From an uncultured bacterium (GTDB taxonomy: Bacteria; Patescibacteriota; Minisyncoccia; Phycocordibacterales; GWA1-40-21), in NCBI GenBank assembly GCA_963798465.1, contig CAWCTC010000001.1:592465-656464 (forward strand): DNA of 64,000 nucleotides. The letters are read 5' to 3'. The notes below the pieces were generated by a model that worked only from the letters and a program-made list of their open reading frames with translations, was not told the origin of the DNA and searched no databases. This document shows positions 3,797 to 64,000 of the stretch, one piece after another; position 1 is the first letter of the stretch; each line of letters begins with the position of its first letter. The position numbers and the translations under genes were made by a program.

Positions 3797-5831
3797 TTAT
3801 TTTTTCTTTTCCACCCTCTCCTTCAAAACCTTAATCTCATCTCTCAATATCGCCGCGGTTTCAAAATCCAAAATCTTCACCGCTGCGTTCATTTGAATTT
3901 CTTTTTGTTTTATCAGCTTCATTGGGCTCTTTTTCATCATTTCCTCATCAATTCGAACAAGCTCTTTCACGGCTTTGTCATGATCGCTTCTCATATGGTC
4001 TGTGATATCGTGAATCTTTTTGATAATCGTTTTTGGAGTAATGCCGTGCTTTGTATTGTAAGCAATTTGTTTTTCTCTTCTTCTATTTGTCTCACCTATC
4101 GCTCGTTCCATTGAGCCGGTAATACTGTCAGCATAAAGCACCACGCGTCCGAGCAACATTTCTCGCCGCACGTCCGATGGTCTGAATAAGCGAAGTATCG
4201 CTGAACGCAAAAATCCTTCCTTGTCCGCATCAAGAATTCCGATAAATTCAACTTCCGGCAAATCCAAACCTTCTCGCAAAAGGTTTACTCCGACAAGACA
4301 ATCAAACTTCCCTTTTCTGAAAGTTCGTAAGAATATCTATTCTGTCTATTGTTTTTATTTCGCTGTGCAAATATTCTGCTTTCACACCTTTTTCTTTCAA
4401 ATATTCGCTCAAATCTTCCGCCATCTTTTTTGTGAGAGTTGTGGCAATGACTCTTCCGCCGTTTTTCACAACTTTTTCTGTTTCTTCTATAAAATCAAAA
4501 ACTTGAGATTTATTTTTTCCTTTTACTTCGGTAATCGGCTTTACTTCCACAATCGGATCAATCAAGACCAGTCGGACGGATAATTTGCTCCACAATTTTC
4601 TCTGAATTTTCTTTTTCATAATCTCCCGGCGTGGCTGTAGTATAAATAATTTGATTTACTCTTTCTTCAAATTCATCAAACTTCAAAGGTCTGTTGTCTT
4701 TTGCTGATGGAAGACGAAAACCATAGTCAATCAAAGTCTTTTTTCTTGAAGCATCGCCGGCATACATTCCTCTTATCTGAGAAATAGTGACGTGTGATTC
4801 ATCTATAATAGTCAGAAAGTCTGGAGTTCCATCTTCTTTCTTTGGAAAATATTCCAGAAAGTATCTGGTGCTTCGCCCGGTGCTTTGCCGGAAAAATGTC
4901 TTGAATAATTTTCAATTCCATTGCAATAGCCGACTTCTCTTATGAGCGACAAATCGTAAGTTGTTCTTCTTCGAAGTCTTTCTGCTTCAAGATTCTTTCC
5001 CAGCTTTTTTTAATTCTTCAAGTCTGTTCTTCAAGCTCAGCTTTTATACTTTTGAAAGCTCTTTCTTGCTGTTCTTTGTCTGTAATAAAATGTTTTGCAG
5101 GAAAAATAAAAGTTGATTGTATTTCATCTTCAACAAGTTTTCGAGAAACTGAATCAATTCTTGAAATTTTCTTTATTCTATCTTCAGCAAAATCTAAGCG
5201 AATCAAAATCTTTTCATTTACCGGCATGACTTCAATAGAATTTCCAATAGCACGAAAAGTTCCCGGCTTTATATCGGAATTTGTTCTTTCAAAATGAACA
5301 TTGATAAGTTTTTTTATAAGGTCTTGCCTCGTAGTTTTTTCTCCAACTTTCAATTTTAATATTTACTTTTTCATATTCTTCTGGTGAACCCAAACCGTAA
5401 ATACAAGAAACCGATGCGACAATAATCACATCTTTTCTCGTAAGAAGTGCTTGCGTGGAAGCATGGCGAAGTCTGTCTATCTCTTCATTTATCATCGCTT
5501 CCTTTTCAATATAAGTATCGGTGACGGCATATAAGCTTCCGGCTGATAGTAGTCGTAATAAGAAACAAAATAATGCACGGCATTGTCTGGGAAAAATTCT
5601 TTGTACTCTTGTGCGAGCTGAGCTGCGAGAGTTTTGTTGTGAGCGATGACAAGCGTCGGCTTTTGAATTTTTTCAATAACATTTGCAACCGTAAAAGTCT
5701 TTCCGGAGCCAGTAACGCCAAAAAGAGTCTGCTTTTTCAAGACCTTTTTCTAACCCCGCAACCAACTCTTTAATTGCATTCGGTTGATCCCCCGCTGGCT
5801 TATATTCTGCTTTGATTTTGAATTTTGACAT
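3797..5831 (-). pseudogene. uvrB: Excinuclease ABC subunit B, disrupted by about 10 frameshifts
   Basis: Pieces occur in shifting frames: [66 protein letters not shown], and the C-terminal UVR domain. At 4290-4300 an extra A in an A-run breaks QKGKFDCLVGVNLLREG. Confidence 0.85.
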
Positions 5832-5899
5832 ATTAGAACACTAAAATAGCACAAAAAACACTTTTTGACATATCTCTGCTCTCGCAAGGATAGTCTTTT

Positions 5900-6463
5900 C
5901 TAGTTACATAGCCAATTTTTGTATTCCTCAAACTCTTTAGTTTGATCTTTATTTAAAAAATCACCATCAAGGTCGCGAAATTTTTTGTCTATGACAACAA
6001 CGCCTTTAGTACGAATAGAACATAATATGTGATCAATAAACAGATTAGTTTTATCAATAAAACTATCTATATCAATTTTTTGTGCTTCTTTGTTAAGTTT
6101 TTTTGAATCTTTGTCTAGATGTACAATAAGTTTATTTACCTGATCCTCAAATTTATCTTTCCATTCGGTAAATAAAATTTTGTGCTCTTTTTCCAATTCA
6201 TGATTTTTAACATAATTTAATAAATATGTTATTTTGTATGACCTCTCATCTGATTCAAAAAATTTTCTAAAATCAATCAACTGACCGCGAGTATAGTCCG
6301 TTATATAATAAGAGATAAATGCATTATTATATACTGCATCTTTGGTATCTTTGCCTACCAAATTCTTTTCAAACAATCTAAAAAGTGCCCTTCTTCTTAA
6401 AATAATAATCATCAACTCATGGAATACGCTAATATATTCTTGTATCTTTTTTGATTCTTCCAT
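5900..6463 (-). CDS. Hypothetical protein, weak AbiU2/HEPN-like pattern with the catalytic Arg replaced
   Basis: QVNKLIVHLDKD resembles the AbiU2 R-N-K-x-x-A-H-x-D motif, but Val replaces Arg. It lies immediately upstream of uvrB on the same strand. Confidence 0.3.
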   Translation of the reverse strand: MEESKKIQEYISVFHELMIIILRRRALFRLFEKNLVGKDTKDAVYNNAFISYYITDYTRGQLIDFRKFFESDERSYKITYLLNYVKNHELEKEHKILFTEWKDKFEDQVNKLIVHLDKDSKKLNKEAQKIDIDSFIDKTNLFIDHILCSIRTKGVVVIDKKFRDLDGDFLNKDQTKEFEEYKNWLCN

Positions 6464-7384: not shown

Positions 7385-7407
7385 AAAAGTGATTATACCA
7401 CAAATCA

Positions 7408-8626
<1,219 letters not shown>

Positions 8627-8672
8627 AAGGTTAATATAACACAAAATTACTAGTTAGTAATAATAGTTTGTG

Positions 8673-9630: not shown

Positions 9631-9640
9631 AATTAAATAC

Positions 9641-9676
9641 AAAAAAGGGCGGCACCTTCGGTGCCGCCCTTTTTTG
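9641..9676. terminator. Bidirectional GC-rich terminator (GGGCGGCACCTTCGGTGCCGCCC)
   Basis: A6 + 10-bp GC stem + T6, between convergent genes. Identical core at 26955..26977; near-identical at 60922..60944. Confidence 0.85.
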
Positions 9677-14719: not shown

Positions 14720-14829
14720 TTTTTATTCAAAAACATCATAATGCATATTATACAACATAAACGAAAAACGCACTACAGAAACGCATTTTTGCTCACATTT
14801 TTTTTATTTCCAAAAATATGCACAGATTT

Positions 14830-14921
14830 ACCCGAGAAAATTTTTGTTGATGAAAAAATTATGTATAATTTTTCAGCATTATACTAAGATATATACTGCG
14901 TTAACAAAAACTTTAACGGGT
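14830..14921 (-). repeat. H1 element copy C
   Basis: Arms ACCCGTTAAAGTTTTTGTTAA ... TCAACAAAAATTTTCTCGGGT. Two inner hairpins. The interior carries TAGTATAAT. Confidence 0.6.
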
Positions 14922-21479: not shown

Positions 21480-21525
21480 TTGTTTTGATAATTTTAATAG
21501 GATTATTATAGCATTTTTTAAGCAT

Positions 21526-21560
21526 AAAAAAGGGCGGCCGCTTCGCGGCCGCCCTTTTTG
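21526..21560. terminator. Bidirectional GC-rich terminator (GGGCGGCCGCTTCGCGGCCGCCC)
   Basis: A-run + 10-bp GC stem + T-run. Identical core at 46461..46483. Confidence 0.85.
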
Positions 21561-21567
21561 ATTTGTG

Positions 21568-23097: not shown

Positions 23098-23170
23098 TGT
23101 CATTCCCGCGCAGGCGGGAATCCAGGTTTAATTAAATTGATTCTGGATTCCCGTTTTCACGGGAATGACA
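23098..23170. mobile_element. MITE-like palindromic element (GTCATTCCCGCG.AGGCGGGAATCCAG family)
   Basis: TGTCATTCCCGCGCAGGCGGGAATCCAGG ... CTGGATTCCCGTTTTCACGGGAATGACA, 73 bp, within the helicase 5' leader. Confidence 0.75.
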
Positions 23171-24929: not shown

Positions 24930-25043
24930 TGTCATTCCCGCGAAGGCGGGAATCCAGAATTAATAGTGTCGCACTTATATAGGACGATTGTGCGAGTGAC
25001 TTCGCTAAGTCAAACCTAGATTCCCGTATTCACGGGAATGACA
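24930..25043. mobile_element. Composite MITE (GTCATTCCCGCGAAGGCGGGAATCCAG arms with an inserted GTCGCAC...GTGCGAG module)
   Basis: Arms as in 23098..23170 and 62055..62127. The extra internal unit is also found at 35889..35933, 52566..52599 and inside 61427..61523. Confidence 0.7.
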
Positions 25044-26905: not shown

Positions 26906-26948
26906 TCCATGAACCATATTATACTAAAAATAGTTTAAAAAACTAATC

Positions 26949-26984
26949 AAAAAAGGGCGGCACCTTCGGTGCCGCCCTTTTTTG
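26949..26984. terminator. Bidirectional GC-rich terminator (same core as 9647..9669)
   Basis: AAAAAAGGGCGGCACCTTCGGTGCCGCCCTTTTTTG. Confidence 0.85.
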
Positions 26985-46445: not shown

Positions 46446-46454
46446 ACAATCAAA

Positions 46455-46489
46455 TTAAAAGGGCGGCCGCTTCGCGGCCGCCCTTTTAA
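46455..46489. terminator. GC-rich terminator (same core as 21532..21554)
   Basis: AAAAGGGCGGCCGCTTCGCGGCCGCCCTTTT. Confidence 0.85.
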
Positions 46490-46584
46490 ATTATTTATAA
46501 AGTAGTACACTTATTCTAAATCAGTTCTTTATAATTCTCTCAAATGAGAGATTAAATATAAAAATCCTTAAGGAGGTTTTGCTT

Positions 46585-56268: not shown

Positions 56269-56841
56269 TTATTTTATCAACTCCTCGACATTTCCCGAAA
56301 GGTCTGTGGTGTCTCCCTCGACCTTCGAAACATCTCCGTAAATATTGGTAACATCGCCTTTTATATTTGTCACATGGCCTTTTATATTGCTGACGTAACC
56401 TTTAATGTTTGTGACATTGCCGGTTATATTTGTCACATCTCCTTGCAGATCGGAAACATCGCCAATTATTTTCGTCGTATCGCCTTCAATATGGCTTACA
56501 TCGCCGTGAATATTTGTAACATCACCGCTGATATTGGAAACATCGCCGACAATTCCGCTCAAGTCTCCGCGGATTTTTGAAACATTTCCGCGAATTTTTG
56601 ACACATCGCTTTTGATATTAGTCACATCGCCTTTTATGTTCGAAACATCGCCATGCAAGCCGGAAATATCTCCGCTGATGTTTGAAACGTCGCCGGAAAT
56701 TTTATGTATGCTCAAATCGCCGGATATTTTTGAAACATCGCCTTTTATGGATTTAAAATCGCCCATTATATTGTCATGCAAGCCTGTGACATTTTCCGTA
56801 TTCAGCTGTTTGAAAGCTATATTTATTTTTTTGAGTGTCAT
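56269..56841 (-). CDS. Heptad-repeat protein: about 22 tandem GDV(S/T)NIx units, no signal peptide
   Basis: GDVSNIS GDISGLH GDVSNIK GDVTNIK SDVSKIR GNVSKIR ... GDVTNIY GDVSKVE GDTTDLS. TGATATCAT lies 6 nt upstream of the ATG. The plus-strand ORFs 56263..56580 and 56534..56851 are shadows of the repeat. Confidence 0.7.
   Translation of the reverse strand: MTLKKINIAFKQLNTENVTGLHDNIMGDFKSIKGDVSKISGDLSIHKISGDVSNISGDISGLHGDVSNIKGDVTNIKSDVSKIRGNVSKIRGDLSGIVGDVSNISGDVTNIHGDVSHIEGDTTKIIGDVSDLQGDVTNITGNVTNIKGYVSNIKGHVTNIKGDVTNIYGDVSKVEGDTTDLSGNVEELIK
56290..56760 (-). repeat. 21-bp tandem coding repeat underlying the heptad protein
   Basis: Periodicity of GGNGAYGTNWCNAAYATHNNN read over about 470 bp. 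Confidence 0.75.
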
Positions 56842-56957: not shown

Positions 56958-58538
56958 TCACGATTTCGTGCCATAAAGTTCACGAAACGTCATCCAAATT
57001 TTCTTGTACTTACCTGTCGGAACTTCTTCTTTCAAATGATTGATATCAAAACTCGAATCTTCTTCAACAATTTTTTCAATATGATCGAGAAGCGTGCCGA
57101 TTTTAATTCCTTTTATTTCCAAAATTTCTTTCAAACCCATTCCTTGTGAAAGCATATTTTTGGTTTCTTCTATCGGCGAGATTCTTCTTTTTTTCTTTTT
57201 GTCTATTTTCGTTCCTTCCGGCGGAGCAACTTTTTTCAAAAATTCTTCCTGCTTATTTTTTATTTCTTTGTCGGAAAGAGTATAAAGCCATTGTTTATCG
57301 CCATCTGACATTTCTTTCAAATCTTCATCAAAAATAGAAACATCCTCACGAACTTCAAGCGCATTTTTATTCATTCCAAGCAAACGCAGACCCTCAAGAG
57401 TTCGCACACGAGAAAGCGCAACATAGCCCATTCCTTTTTCAAAAGATTTTGAAAGATCGACTTCAACTGCATCCAAACTCATACCTTGGCTTTTGTGCAC
57501 AGTTATAGCCCAAGCCAAGCGAAGCGGATATTGTGTGATTGTCGCTTTCACTTTTCCTTCATCTTCAATCACCCAATTTACTTTTTCCGGAATAATTATT
57601 TTTCCTGAAGTAAGCATGACTTTCGGTCCATAGTTTGAACACTCAATAACTTTTCCCAAAGTTCCATTTGCATATCCTTCTTCAAAATTATTTTTTACAA
57701 ACATCACTCTCGCTCCTTTTTTCAAACGCAAAACTTCTGGCGCAAGACAGCTTTTTTTCAATGCTTCGACAAGCGGTTTTCTTCCTTTGTCTTCCATTTG
57801 ATATGTAAAAATTTGCCCTGGAAGTTTGTTGAGCTCGGCATCATTAATAGTATCTACATTTATATTGTGAGTGTGAAGTTTTGTCGGCTCAATTCCCTCT
57901 TTCAAACAAGCATTATTTCTTGAATTCAAACAAAGTAAAGATTCTTCGCTCAAATTTCCTCCGCGAATTCCATTTAAAATTTTTATAAACTTGTCATCTT
58001 TATGTCTGAATTGTTCTTCAAGATAGCAAATTTTCAAATTAAGTTTTTTCCAAGCTTCAGACTTATATGCAAATTGAGATTCTTTTTCGCCCACTCTTGA
58101 AACCGGAGGAAGCTGGAAAAAATCTCCGCAAAGTATCACTTGCATTCCACCAAATGGAAGCTGATTTCTTTTCAAATGTCTTGCGATTCTTTCTATCAAA
58201 TCCAAGCGAAAATCGATGAATCATTGAAACCTCATCAATTATCAAAACTTCTGTTTCTCTAAATCTATCATGCAAATATTTCTTACTTTCCAAATCTTCC
58301 AAGATCATATTCTGTAAGTTCATCACGAATACCAAGTCCGCTCCAAGAATGAATCGTCGTTCCACCCATATGAGTCGCCGCAATTCCAGTCGAAGCGGTC
58401 ACGCCAACTTCAACTCCTTTATTTTTAAGGAATTTTATATATTCATTTAAAAGATGCGTTTTACCAGCTACCCGCCGCTCCTGTGATATAGCAGTTGTAT
58501 CCCATCTTCAATATTTCTAGTGCATCCTTTTGGGTCAT
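56958..58538 (-). pseudogene. Pif1/RecD-like superfamily-1 helicase, at least 3 frameshifts (one inside Walker A)
   Basis: [24 protein letters not shown] then GGTAGCTGGTAAAACG, where GSGKT is expected. IIDEVSMI, GGMQVILCGDFFQLPPV, ITVHKSQGMSLD, ALSRVR. Confidence 0.8.
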
Positions 58539-59143: not shown

Positions 59144-59148
59144 AAAAA

Positions 59149-59178
59149 CAATGGCGGGCCCTTAAAGGCCCGCCATTT
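59149..59178. terminator. Bidirectional GC-rich terminator
   Basis: ATGGCGGGCC-CTTAAA-GGCCCGCCAT + T-run. Confidence 0.8.
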
Positions 59179-59182
59179 TAAA

Positions 59183-59869: not shown

Positions 59870-60007
59870 AGGGTAGTGAAATTTCAAATTGTTTTTATTG
59901 CCAAACAACTTGAAATTTTAATTAATGTTTATTTGATAAATTATAAATCTATTGATATATATAACTTTTCTAAAAACAAGGCAATGATTTGAAATTCTAC
60001 TACCCTG
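59869..60007 (-). promoter_or_regulatory. H2 element copy E (21-nt arms) ending at the trmD GTG
   Basis: CAGGGTAGTAGAATTTCAAAT (60007->59987) pairs with ATTTGAAATTTCACTACCCTG (59889->59869): 19 Watson-Crick pairs, 1 GU, 1 mismatch. CCCCG/CGGGG is replaced by CAGGG/CCCTG. Confidence 0.6.
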
Positions 60008-60014
60008 TTCATTT

Positions 60015-60142
60015 ACCCGAGAAAATTTTTGCCAATAAAAATTGCGCGACTTTAAGGTTTAACTAGATAACATTTATAACTCTAACCCAATATCACAAAA
60101 ATCGCAATTTTTGCTAGCGCGTTGGCAAAAACTTTAACGGGT
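60015..60142 (-). repeat. H1 element copy E
   Basis: Arms ACCCGTTAAAGTTTTTGCCAA ... TTGGCAAAAATTTTCTCGGGT. Flanks extend the stem (AAAT/ATTT). Confidence 0.6.
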
Positions 60143-60203
60143 AAATCAAAATACAATAAAAAACGCCAAAATACAATGATTAAAATTCAGTCGATTCTTG
60201 ATA

Positions 60204-60908: not shown

Positions 60909-60915
60909 AATTAAT

Positions 60916-60950
60916 TATAAAGGGCGGCACCTCCGGTGCCGCCCTTTATA
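60916..60950. terminator. GC-rich terminator (GGGCGGCACCTCCGGTGCCGCCC variant)
   Basis: Differs in the loop by one nucleotide from the 9647 and 26955 copies. Confidence 0.8.
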
Positions 60951-60970
60951 ATTAATTTTTTGAACTTTAA

Positions 60971-61523: not shown

Positions 61524-61530
61524 CAATACA

Positions 61531-61560
61531 AAATGGCGACCACTTCGTGGTCGCCATTTT
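61531..61560. terminator. Hairpin after rpsP
   Basis: ATGGCGACCAC-TTCG-TGGTCGCCAT flanked by A and T runs. Confidence 0.7.
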
Positions 61561-61575
61561 TATTTTAGTTTTAAA

Positions 61576-62054: not shown

Positions 62055-62127
62055 TGTCATTCCCGCGAAGGCGGGAATCCAGGTTGAATTGAATTAATTC
62101 TGGATTCCCGCCTTCGCGGGAATGACA
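62055..62127. mobile_element. MITE-like palindromic element (GTCATTCCCGCGAAGGCGGGAATCCAG family)
   Basis: TGTCATTCCCGCGAAGGCGGGAATCCAGG ... CTGGATTCCCGCCTTCGCGGGAATGACA, 73 bp. Confidence 0.75.
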
Positions 62128-62174: not shown

Positions 62175-64000
62175 ATGAAAAAAGATAAACAATTCTGGAG
62201 GAAGGACAGTAATGACAGCAGGAAAACTGAACATCAGGGAAAACTGAAGACTCTGACAGGAAAAATCAAAGCAATTCGCGGCCACACCGCCTATTTTATA
62301 GCCGACACAAACAATCTTGAAGTTGAAATCCCGACAAGACAGATAAACACTGCAATGTCCGGCGACAAGGTTGAAATAAAACTATTCAAGAAAAATAAAA
62401 CCGGAGTTCATGAAGGCGAAGTAATAAAAGTCATAAGTCGTGCAAAAAATTATTTTGTCGGCGTGATTGAAATTTCCGAAAAAGGAATTCTCGTCGTGCC
62501 CGATGATAGAAGAGTAAAAATTTCCGTAAAAATCGCAAAAGAAAAAGCCGGCACGCTGAAAAATGACGACAAAGTCAGAGTTAAAATTACAAAATGGGTT
62601 CAAACACCTGGTTTTTCTGAAGGAGAAATTGTAAATATTCTTGGAAAAAAAGGCGACAATTCTACAGAAATGAATTCCATCGCGGTAGATAAAGGTTTCG
62701 ACATGGATTTTTCGGAAAGAGTTTTAAATGAATCGCACAATATTTTCGAGCATAACAAAACAATTTCGCCCGAGGAAATTTCAAAAAGAAAAGATTTGAG
62801 AAATACTTTCACTTGCACGATTGATCCAAAAACCGCAAAAGATTTTGACGATGCCATTTCATTCAAGAAACTTCCAAATGGAAATCTTGAAATCGGTATT
62901 CATATCGCCGACGTTTCTTATTATGTCACTGAAAAAAGTGAGCTCGACAAAGAAGCTTACGAACGCGGTTGTTCGGTTTATTTGCCCGATAGAACGATTC
63001 CAATGCTTCCCTTTGAGCTTTCGGACAATCTTTGCTCTTTGAGTGAAGGCGACGAAAAACTTGCCTTTTCTGCAATTTTTGAAATCACCCCCCATGCAAA
63101 AGTCCATACAAGATGGTTTGGGAAATCCGTCATCAAATCCGCAAAAAGATTCACTTATGAAAGCGCGCAGGAAATATTAGATAGTGGCAACTCCTCTTTG
63201 TCATTGCAAGTGGAACGAAGTAATCCAGAAAAATTAGAAATAGATTCCCGTCTTCACGGGAATGACAACATGAAATATTTTGAAGCACTTGATACTTTGA
63301 ACAAGATTTCCAAAATATTCAGAAAGGAAAAAACGCAGAAAGGCGCGATAGATTTTGAATCAGGAAGAAATCGCTTTTGAGCTCGACACGGAAGGCAGAC
63401 CAATCAGGATTTACAAAAAACAAAGACTCGACACGCACAAGCTCGTCGAGGAATTCATGCTTCTCGCAAATAAAGAAGTCGCGGAGTTCGTTTATAAATA
63501 TGAAAAAAATTCCGGAAAACTTTTTCCTCTGCCATATCGTATTCACGATTTGCCAGACAAAGAAAGAATCGCTGAGCTTGCAGTTTTCGTAAAAGCTTTA
63601 GGCCATGAGCTTTTCATCGGACCAATCTGGAAATGTCACCGGCAAGGATATGCAGGCGCTTTTTGAGCAGATTGAAGGCAAGGCTGAGGAAGCACTGGTA
63701 AAAACCGCAGCGATCCGCTCGATGTCAAAAGCTATTTATTCAACAAAAAATATCGGTCACTTCGGACTTGGCTTTTGAATATTACGCGCACTTCACCTCG
63801 CCTATCCGAAGATATCCGGATCTTTTAGTCCACAGAATTTTAAATAAAATTTTAACAAAAGAGAGCATCGCCCACGAAAAGTCTGCTGACCTCGTGGCAA
63901 GAGAAAAAAATCTCGCATTTTATGAAAAAGCTTGTCTTCACTCGACCGACCAAGAAATAAAAGCTTCAGAAGCTGAGCGCGATGGCAGAAAATACAAACA
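62175..64000 (+). pseudogene. rnr: Ribonuclease R, at least 3 frameshifts and an in-frame MITE insertion; runs off the window end
   Basis: N-terminal OB/CSD region. RNB motifs CTIDPKTAKDFDDAIS, IGIHIADVSYYV and [23 protein letters not shown] occur in different frames. Breaks are near 63365, 63610 and 63775. Confidence 0.8.
63199..63267 (+). mobile_element. 69-bp MITE inserted in frame in the RNase R coding sequence
   Basis: TGTCATTGCAAGTGGAACGAAGTAATCCAG ... AGATTCCCGTCTTCACGGGAATGACA. 69 nt is 23 codons, read through as SLQVERSNPEKLEIDSRLHGNDN without a stop. Confidence 0.7.

Follow-up and report, generated by a model that had tools for sequence, protein, structure and literature searches.

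The 64-kb window analysed here (the whole stretch of DNA, 64,000 nucleotides) ends inside rnr, the gene for ribonuclease R (RNase R), and this gene carries a short repeat element within its coding sequence. The gene product was identified by its Pfam domains (RNB with E=2.4e-109, plus CSD2 and OB_RNB), by its match to the B. subtilis RNase R structure 8cdu (E=1e-93), and by its nearest orthologs, which share 91–94% identity and are annotated as ribonuclease R in metagenome-assembled genomes of Candidatus Paceibacterota / Patescibacteria. The part of the gene inside the window encodes the OB_RNB, CSD2 and RNB domains of the RNase R architecture, and the S1 domain is present in the full-length orthologs. 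An open reading frame (ORF) at 62175–63380 begins at the rnr start codon and crosses the element without a stop. Within this continuous ORF, a 69-bp segment (23 codons) at 63199–63267 matches the sequence quoted earlier for this locus and encodes the peptide SLQVERSNPEKLEIDSRLHGNDN. Only one of the three forward frames of this copy is open, as read from the sequence, and it is the frame in register with rnr. The original prediction of a multi-copy repeat inserted in frame in rnr, with no stop codon, was confirmed. The main features of this region are the following:

62175–64000, plus strand: rnr (RNase R), incomplete because the window ends within it; OB, CSD2 and RNB domains; three 1-bp insertions relative to intact relatives.
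63183–63198, plus strand: extra upstream codons AGTGGCAACTCCTCTT, encoding SGNSS-L; part of a 78-bp difference from alleles without the insertion, outside the recognisable repeat.
63199–63267, plus strand: 69-bp core of a heterodimer of repetitive extragenic palindromic (REP) sequences, tags (TGTC) outward and tails (CCA/CTA) inward; the same element occurs in the related contigs L001–L004 and in L086.
63199–63227, plus strand: left arm, a B-type CGTC-tagged repeat, TGTC-ATTGCAAG-TGGAA-CGAAGTAAT-CCA, with no stable hairpin in the window copy.
63228–63239, plus strand: inter-arm spacer, which differs among the alleles that carry the insertion (filled alleles).
63240–63267, minus strand: right arm, a REP of the Neisseria Transformation Sequence / Ssn-related motif (NTS/SRM) type (CGTC-1), TGTC-ATTCCCGT-GAAG-ACGGGAAT-CTA, with an 8-bp stem and a 4-nt loop.

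One of the two arms has close counterparts elsewhere in the window. The arm pattern ATTCCCGNNNNCNCGGGAATGACA is matched seven times in the window, compared with 0.00 matches expected by chance. Six of these matches pair into three intergenic dimers, and the remaining one belongs to the rnr element as its right arm, which gives four inverted dimers in 64 kb. The intergenic copies are:

62055–62127: NTS/SRM homodimer between rpsP (S16) and rnr, a perfect 73-bp hairpin dimer with a 28-bp stem.
23098–23170: NTS/SRM dimer between the genes of an ABC-F ATPase and a DEAD-box helicase, identified by arm and SRM matches and by its fold.
24930–25043: NTS/SRM dimer whose arms are 58 bp apart, located upstream of the ABC-F ATPase gene, identified by arm and SRM matches and by its fold.

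The stem/loop part of the A-type arm layout, TGTC-ATTCCCGN-NNNN-NCGGGAAT-CCA, is found in all seven arms, with the tail CCA in five and CTA in the remaining two, the rnr right arm among them. The TGTC tag starts all seven A-type arms as well as the rnr left arm, and the terminal inverted repeats TGTCATT / AATGACA are present at the ends of all four copies. The copy at 62055–62127 is missing in L001 and L005, whose flanking genes are 97.7% identical to those of the window. This shows that such elements were recently gained or lost in the lineage.

Both arms of the rnr element had been described as similar to those of the intergenic copies at 23098, 24930 and 62055, which holds for the right arm and not for the left. 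The right arm, ATTCCCGTCTTCACGGGAATGACA, matches the arm pattern derived from the intergenic copies at 24 of 24 positions. The left arm, TGTCATTGCAAGTGGAACGAAGTAATCCA, was assigned to a second repeat family, GTCATTGCGAG-N5-CGAAGCAATCC, and judged by its sequence it is a separate family rather than a decayed copy of the right-arm type. The pattern of this second family was found on at least 120 IMG/VR contigs, with N5 mostly CGAAG; the exact 27-mer of the window's left arm was not found in IMG/VR. The 26-mer GTCATTGCGAGTGGAACGAAGCAATC, which is the left-arm variant in the rnr elements of the relatives, occurs on 114 metagenome contigs, a count that refers to this variant; the window's left arm is nearly identical to it, with two substitutions (G to A, and C to T) that give an A/T combination. 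On one metagenome contig (L317, Ga0247727_10001029), 14 of these 26-mers form a clustered array, spaced about 121 bp apart. In metagenomes, 131 copies of the 26-mer were examined, and 43 of them lie inside long, mutually unrelated ORFs, counting as long those with 150 codons or more and with 40 codons or more to either side of the 26-mer. From their flanking peptides, we take these ORFs to include secretion-tail domains, a PurL-like protein and a UvrB-like protein. In-frame residence is a general property of these repeats, in line with the survey of CGTC-tagged REPs in PMC3733652.

The rnr element is accordingly built differently from what had been proposed: on the evidence of its two arms, it is a heterodimer of two different REP families and not a palindromic miniature inverted-repeat transposable element (MITE) with two like arms. 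Classical MITEs share the terminal inverted repeats with it, but a target-site duplication was not seen, so that the label fits less well; around all four copies no consistent direct repeat was found, with at most TA/TA at 62055–62127. The element is also not palindromic as a whole, since pairing is limited to the terminal 7–8 nt (TGTCATT/AATGACA) and to the 8-bp hairpin within the right arm. Its calculated fold as single-stranded DNA amounts to −9 kcal/mol (z −2.9) and comes wholly from the right-arm hairpin, which reaches −7.6 kcal/mol (z −4.6) with its 8-bp stem and 4-nt loop. The left arm gives −1.5 kcal/mol (z −0.5) and does not form the 8-bp stem of the CGTC-1 type. In contrast, the intergenic copies form long single-stranded hairpins of −23 to −39 kcal/mol (z −7 to −13).

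Among the orthologs, filled alleles stand beside alleles that have no insertion (empty alleles). The ortholog P0001 is an intact protein of 689 aa, 93% identical to the window, and carries the insert as SGNSFLSLRVERSNPEKSETDSRLHGNDNM. It is encoded on L001–L004, which come from four independent datasets (ENA, two Logan runs and JGI) and are identical across rnr. The ortholog most similar to P0001 (97% over core columns) is P0002, encoded on L005, a protein of 663 aa that is 94% identical to the window and possesses only NKSGE at the site; it represents the empty allele. In DNA alignments, a filled allele is 78 bp (26 codons) longer than an empty one, with SGNSSLSLQVERSNPEKLEIDSRLHGNDNMK in place of NKSGE. 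The insertion is as clean with respect to orthologs as had been predicted, and it is missing from the nearest relatives, but it comprises 26 codons (78 bp) rather than 23. The same 69-bp element also occupies this site in P0004, an ortholog at a greater distance (83% identity to the window), and P0006, the closest relative of P0004, is empty. Every filled allele has an empty one as its nearest neighbour. The insertion predates the split of the window lineage from the P0001 lineage.

Between the window and L001, the element shows seven differences, four of which are non-synonymous. The right-arm stem does not differ between the window, L001 and L086, and only a loop base varies. The rnr sequence is a mosaic among close strains; sliding identity between L001 and L086 gave no clear peak around the element that would mark a recombination tract. 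The matches listed by a scan of genome contigs with the rnr alignment rest on generic RNB motifs and are mostly distant Bacteroidota; among them only L006 and L010 are close.

For the position of the insert in the protein, AlphaFold models of both allele types were compared. In the model of the empty P0002, a helix at residues 328–337 is followed by a 5-residue turn and a second helix at 343–362, with a predicted local distance difference test (pLDDT) score above 90. In the model of the filled P0001, the helices span residues 328–347 and 362–388, and within the RNB region pLDDT falls below 50 only at residues 343–362. The P0001 model matches solved RNase R structures with template modelling (TM) scores of 0.80–0.88, the best being 8cdu, 5xgu and 7dcy. 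The structure mapping suggested for this insertion thus places it in a predicted surface turn between RNB-domain helices: in the models, the insert is a low-confidence loop in this turn and the RNase R fold is kept. A location in the RNA-unwinding tri-helix wedge, which corresponds to E. coli residues 487–545 (PMC5714204), was considered and rejected, as the insert aligns about 80 residues upstream of the wedge.

The same turn is occupied in other orthologs as well. About 24 of 115 full-length orthologs have insertions at consensus positions 336–343, with at least 10 unrelated sequences among them, while 91 have no insertion at the turn, and every unfilled ortholog scored shows the same short turn. 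At the DNA level, P0044 contains an NTS-like arm in another reading frame together with a nested third hairpin, P0047 contains two B-type arms in a third frame, and P0040 shares the right arm alone. These data bear on the idea that the extra residues are an ancestral loop of the RNase R clade which was lost elsewhere, its resemblance to a repeat being coincidental or secondary. The eukaryotic proteins Dis3L2 and DIS3L1 are naturally longer at the insert position, and an SG(N)S(S) prefix is common to several filled alleles, both of which would suit an old loop. However, most orthologs lack the insertion, and over this stretch B. subtilis RNase R falls short of the window by about 19 residues in the alignment. 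In addition, the right arm fully matches a pattern derived from intergenic copies, the left arm lies two bases from a 26-mer of 114 unrelated contigs, and the filled alleles vary both in the repeat family that they contain and in its reading frame. An ancestral loop is, in our opinion, extremely improbable.

Further short insertions were seen in rnr orthologs. P0060 contains a complete 94-residue GIY-YIG nuclease domain at residues 234–327 (L249, about 1700–1981), in frame within the RNB domain but at a place other than the turn, and bounded by the 9-bp inverted repeats CCTGCCTGC / GCAGGCAGG. Some of the other orthologs have short inserts of the LPAQAG type. Recurrent short in-frame inserts (QGGSASGG, PSQIKSQFDGAR) were found in P0023, P0030, P0032, P0033 and P0077 (consensus position 192) and in P0013, P0028 and P0044 (SQIKSQFDGA), and in L006 the PSQIKSQFDGAR insert is encoded by a hairpin with a 7-bp stem.

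Downstream of the element, the window's rnr gene differs from its relatives by three single-base insertions and by a second small insert:

63363, plus strand: frameshift 1, an extra G relative to L001–L005 in the DNA alignment, 96 bp downstream of the element.
63624, plus strand: frameshift 2, an extra A relative to L001–L005 in the DNA alignment.
63769, plus strand: frameshift 3, an extra T relative to L001–L005 in the DNA alignment, which restores the original frame.
63871–63900, plus strand: second in-frame rnr insertion of 30 bp, encoding 10 residues, with a 6-bp inverted repeat; the closest relatives do not have it.

The DNA alignment revealed no frameshift upstream of the element, the first one being that at 63363. 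The ratio of non-synonymous to synonymous substitution rates (dN/dS) between the window's rnr and either relative is 0.06–0.13, with the frameshifted part included, compared with 0.05–0.09 for the intact pair. A ratio as low as that of the intact pair indicates that the window's rnr has been under purifying selection with the insert in place. The frameshifts lie downstream of the insertion. Since they are absent from the relatives, they are younger than the insertion, and they are independent events. They are either very recent, and would then mark pseudogenisation, or they are sequence errors. That only a few genes are affected favours real decay, whereas a very recent origin or errors would agree better with the normal dN/dS. 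In the same window, uvrB (3797–5900, minus strand), tgt (7400–8650, minus strand) and a gene for a PIF1-like helicase (56958–58383, minus strand) are each split over several frames, and 10 large genes are intact; the three fragmented genes reflect either gene-specific decay or local sequence errors.

It had been left open whether the insertion is tolerated or is itself one lesion of a decaying rnr pseudogene. In favour of the latter, three frameshifts fall in the 410 bp that follow the element, and uvrB, tgt and the PIF1-like helicase gene are fragmented beside ten intact large genes, a pattern that suggests gene-specific decay. Nevertheless, the same insertion is found in intact genes from four datasets and in P0004, dN/dS of the window's rnr is not raised, and the insertion, being shared with intact alleles, predates the frameshifts. 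Decay as an explanation for the insertion itself is thus largely refuted and we regard it as very unlikely. The second insertion, at 63871–63900, is also present in P0007 and P0013, and L006, whose ortholog is only 76% identical, contains an identical 27-mer. This identity, despite the low similarity of the genes, suggests that the 30-bp insert may be another small mobile hairpin.

Comparison with described repeat systems supports an assignment of the right arm. CGTC-tagged REPs consist of a CGTC or TGTC tag (CCTC is accepted), an 8–9-bp stem beginning with AT, a 4–5-nt loop and a CCA tail, and occur mostly as inverted dimers (Di Nocera, De Gregorio and Rocco 2013, PMC3733652). By its sequence, the right arm fits the CGTC-1 class of these REPs, alias dRS3/NTS or Ssn-related motif. 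The arms of the window share with CGTC-1 REPs the TGTC tag, the 8-bp stem beginning with AT, the 4-nt loop and the CCA tail. They likewise form inverted dimers with spacers of 20–100 bp, which are mostly intergenic and occasionally reside in frame within genes, encoding 20–30 residues. Unlike the published elements, they reside in a host of the Patescibacteria/Paceibacteria type, outside the five phyla listed in 2013, and the rnr copy is a hybrid of two families whose right arm ends in CTA.

The Neisseria Transformation Sequence is CGTCATTCCCGCGMAVGCGGGAATCYRG, and a degenerate Ssn-related motif has also been given (Nat Commun 2025, PMC11893778). According to the same study, small GIY-YIG nucleases of the SsnA family cut NTS/SRM hairpins in single-stranded DNA, NTS repeats modulate transformation in Neisseria, and the cognate ssn gene (GIY-YIG, cd10448) is often flanked by the motif. 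Four of the seven window arms, all intergenic, equal CGTCATTCCCGCGMAVGCGGGAATCYRG save for a change of C1 to T and are the ones that match the strict NTS with at most one mismatch, while the rnr right arm has four mismatches to it. The degenerate SRM pattern HGTCWYN(0-2)YYVSBRHN(0-5)WNVSBRGN(0-2)RNCYNB is matched by all seven arms, compared with 0.06 matches in shuffled sequences; the minus-strand segment 63240–63267 is included, and the rnr left arm does not match. The likeness to NTS/SRM here is one of sequence. Neither a motif scan nor tblastn with a GIY-YIG query found a GIY-YIG/ssn gene in the 64-kb window. On an IMG/VR contig (L093, 935–1185), an exact 28-nt arm stands directly upstream of a small GIY-YIG ORF, an arrangement like that of NTS and ssnA.

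Two further systems resemble the rnr element in part. With Rickettsia palindromic elements (RPE) it shares the in-frame position of a selfish repeat in a housekeeping gene, at a site compatible with the fold, and the addition of a neutral peptide. RPE-1 differs in being a single long palindrome of about 150 bp with a conserved peptide (Ogata et al. 2000, as reviewed in PMC10969869), whereas the rnr element is a 69-bp dimer of two short REPs in another lineage. The Rickettsia precedent invoked for the insertion nevertheless turned out to be more than an analogy, as the right arm fits CGTC-1, which has been equated with Neisseria dRS3 and with RPE-6 of R. conorii; this link is taken from the statement on CGTC-1 in PMC3733652. 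Intragenic CGTC REP dimers that encode 20–30 residues have been reported there as well, most commonly in R. conorii. REPINs and BIMEs, which are mobilised by RAYT (IS200/IS605-like) transposases, are similar in having two short inverted hairpin repeats, no target-site duplication and a filled/empty polymorphism. In contrast to these, the present elements carry a TGTC tag instead of GTAG and no RAYT was identified or noticed, and CGTC REPs have been reported to lack a dedicated transposase. Among the part of the window's ORFs that was scanned, no parent insertion sequence sharing the termini was recognised. Rfam and tRNA scans of the window gave no matches.

Combined, these observations indicate that the element is probably a dimer of hairpin repeats, non-autonomous and belonging to the CGTC-tagged REP superfamily, which resides in frame in rnr as a tolerated selfish passenger. 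One of its arms is a hairpin of the NTS/SRM (dRS3-like) type and the other a B-type repeat, with the tags outward. As the added length is a multiple of three and the sole stop-free frame is in register, rnr would still be read through. The product would gain a disordered, hydrophilic surface loop of about 26 residues with the predicted fold intact, and the insert would be carried as a passenger and not as an adaptation. Mobility may proceed by cutting and rejoining of single-stranded hairpins, by spread of the allele through homologous recombination, or by both. The lack of a target-site duplication, the alternation of filled and empty alleles among very close relatives (97% identical as proteins) and the resemblance of the arm to the Ssn recognition motif point to single-strand-hairpin-type mobility and/or recombination.

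Several observations weigh against this interpretation. The 78-bp difference between filled and empty alleles exceeds the 69-bp repeat by 9 bp, a flanking change of uncertain origin, and the SG(N)S(S) prefix is shared by orthologs with different elements. As a consequence, the boundaries of the insertion are approximate, and one independent event or several may lie behind the filled alleles. Moreover, the arms of L001 and L086 differ at 5 of 57 nucleotides, compared with 21% gene-wide (P about 0.01). This excess conservation points to a more recent insert, to conversion by other copies, or to selection acting at the DNA level, and it is at odds with a purely neutral, old passenger. The surface exposure of the loop is taken from predicted models alone, and the gene of a mobilising GIY-YIG enzyme was not found by the scans of the window described above.

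The conservation of the arms between distant filled alleles is also a reason to consider that the insert is kept because it is useful, either as a peptide loop that alters substrate choice or partner binding of RNase R, or as a DNA or RNA hairpin, for example an Ssn-type target that modulates recombination at the locus or a structure in the rnr mRNA. The identical right-arm stem in the window, L001 and L086, the persistence of the filled allele under strong purifying selection on rnr, the mosaic structure of rnr among close strains, and the effect of NTS repeats on transformation in Neisseria (PMC11893778) would all be in agreement with such a role. However, presence and absence alternate between nearest relatives, and the peptide changes freely, as seen from the four non-synonymous changes among seven. 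In addition, the models show the loop as disordered, other orthologs have many unrelated sequences at this turn, the fold of the whole element is weak, and no ssn gene was seen in the window. A useful insert is therefore considered unlikely, and a tolerated passenger remains the preferred explanation.

The repeated occupation of one turn permits a further, more speculative proposal. Either the turn has been hit repeatedly, or inserts have been lost and replaced. With some hesitation, and at rather low confidence, we propose that the helix-turn-helix tip in the RNB domain of Paceibacteria RNase R might be a recurrent, possibly targeted landing site for several families of single-strand hairpins, with precise insertion and excision, mobilised or maintained by Ssn-like GIY-YIG nucleases. 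Precise insertion together with excision would explain the alternation of filled and empty alleles between near-identical strains. On the other hand, selection for the only permissive spot of the region could explain the coincidence without target specificity. If precise turnover at this tip were true, in-frame hairpin elements would be a general route of protein-loop evolution in bacteria of the candidate phyla radiation (CPR).

Other repeats in the window are of a different nature. At 56311–56773, at least 14 tandem periods of 21 nt (7 residues) lie in a 190-residue ORF on the minus strand, for which Pfam gave only coiled-coil-like matches. A palindrome composed of an A-run, a GC-rich hairpin and a T-run, AAAAAAGGGCGGCACCTTCGGTGCCGCCCTTTTTT, is present in seven copies (9640–9676, 21525–21561, 26948–26984, 46454–46490, 59145–59181, 60915–60951 and 61527–61563); situated at gene ends, these copies resemble intrinsic terminators that work in both directions. 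Promoter or operator elements may be represented by two conserved intergenic motifs, TTTACCCGAGAAAATTTTTGCCAATAAAAA and GCAAAAACTTTAACGGGT, which were found four to five times (2355–2397, 14814–14856 and 59999–60041, and 335–374, 2471–2510, 14898–14921 and 60106–60145).

With regard to its wider meaning, the phenomenon itself is ordinary and already described, and it is the lineage in which it had not been noted previously. In-frame REPs of the CGTC superfamily are documented in several phyla, and our literature search found no paper linking Patescibacteria to such elements. The expected extension to a new lineage is thus correct as far as the lineage is concerned, but incremental. A superfamily known from Neisseria (dRS3/NTS), Rickettsia (RPE-6) and many Proteobacteria is also present in CPR genomes, where it resides in frame in a conserved enzyme. 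For annotation, this means that such inserts lengthen proteins and make odd low-complexity loops (…RLHGND…, …VIASG…), which should not be taken for functional motifs specific to a lineage. The close filled and empty alleles, together with at least 10 different inserts at one turn, provide a natural experiment on how much additional sequence a loop can accommodate, and a place for testing whether these repeats are moved by Ssn-type nucleases.

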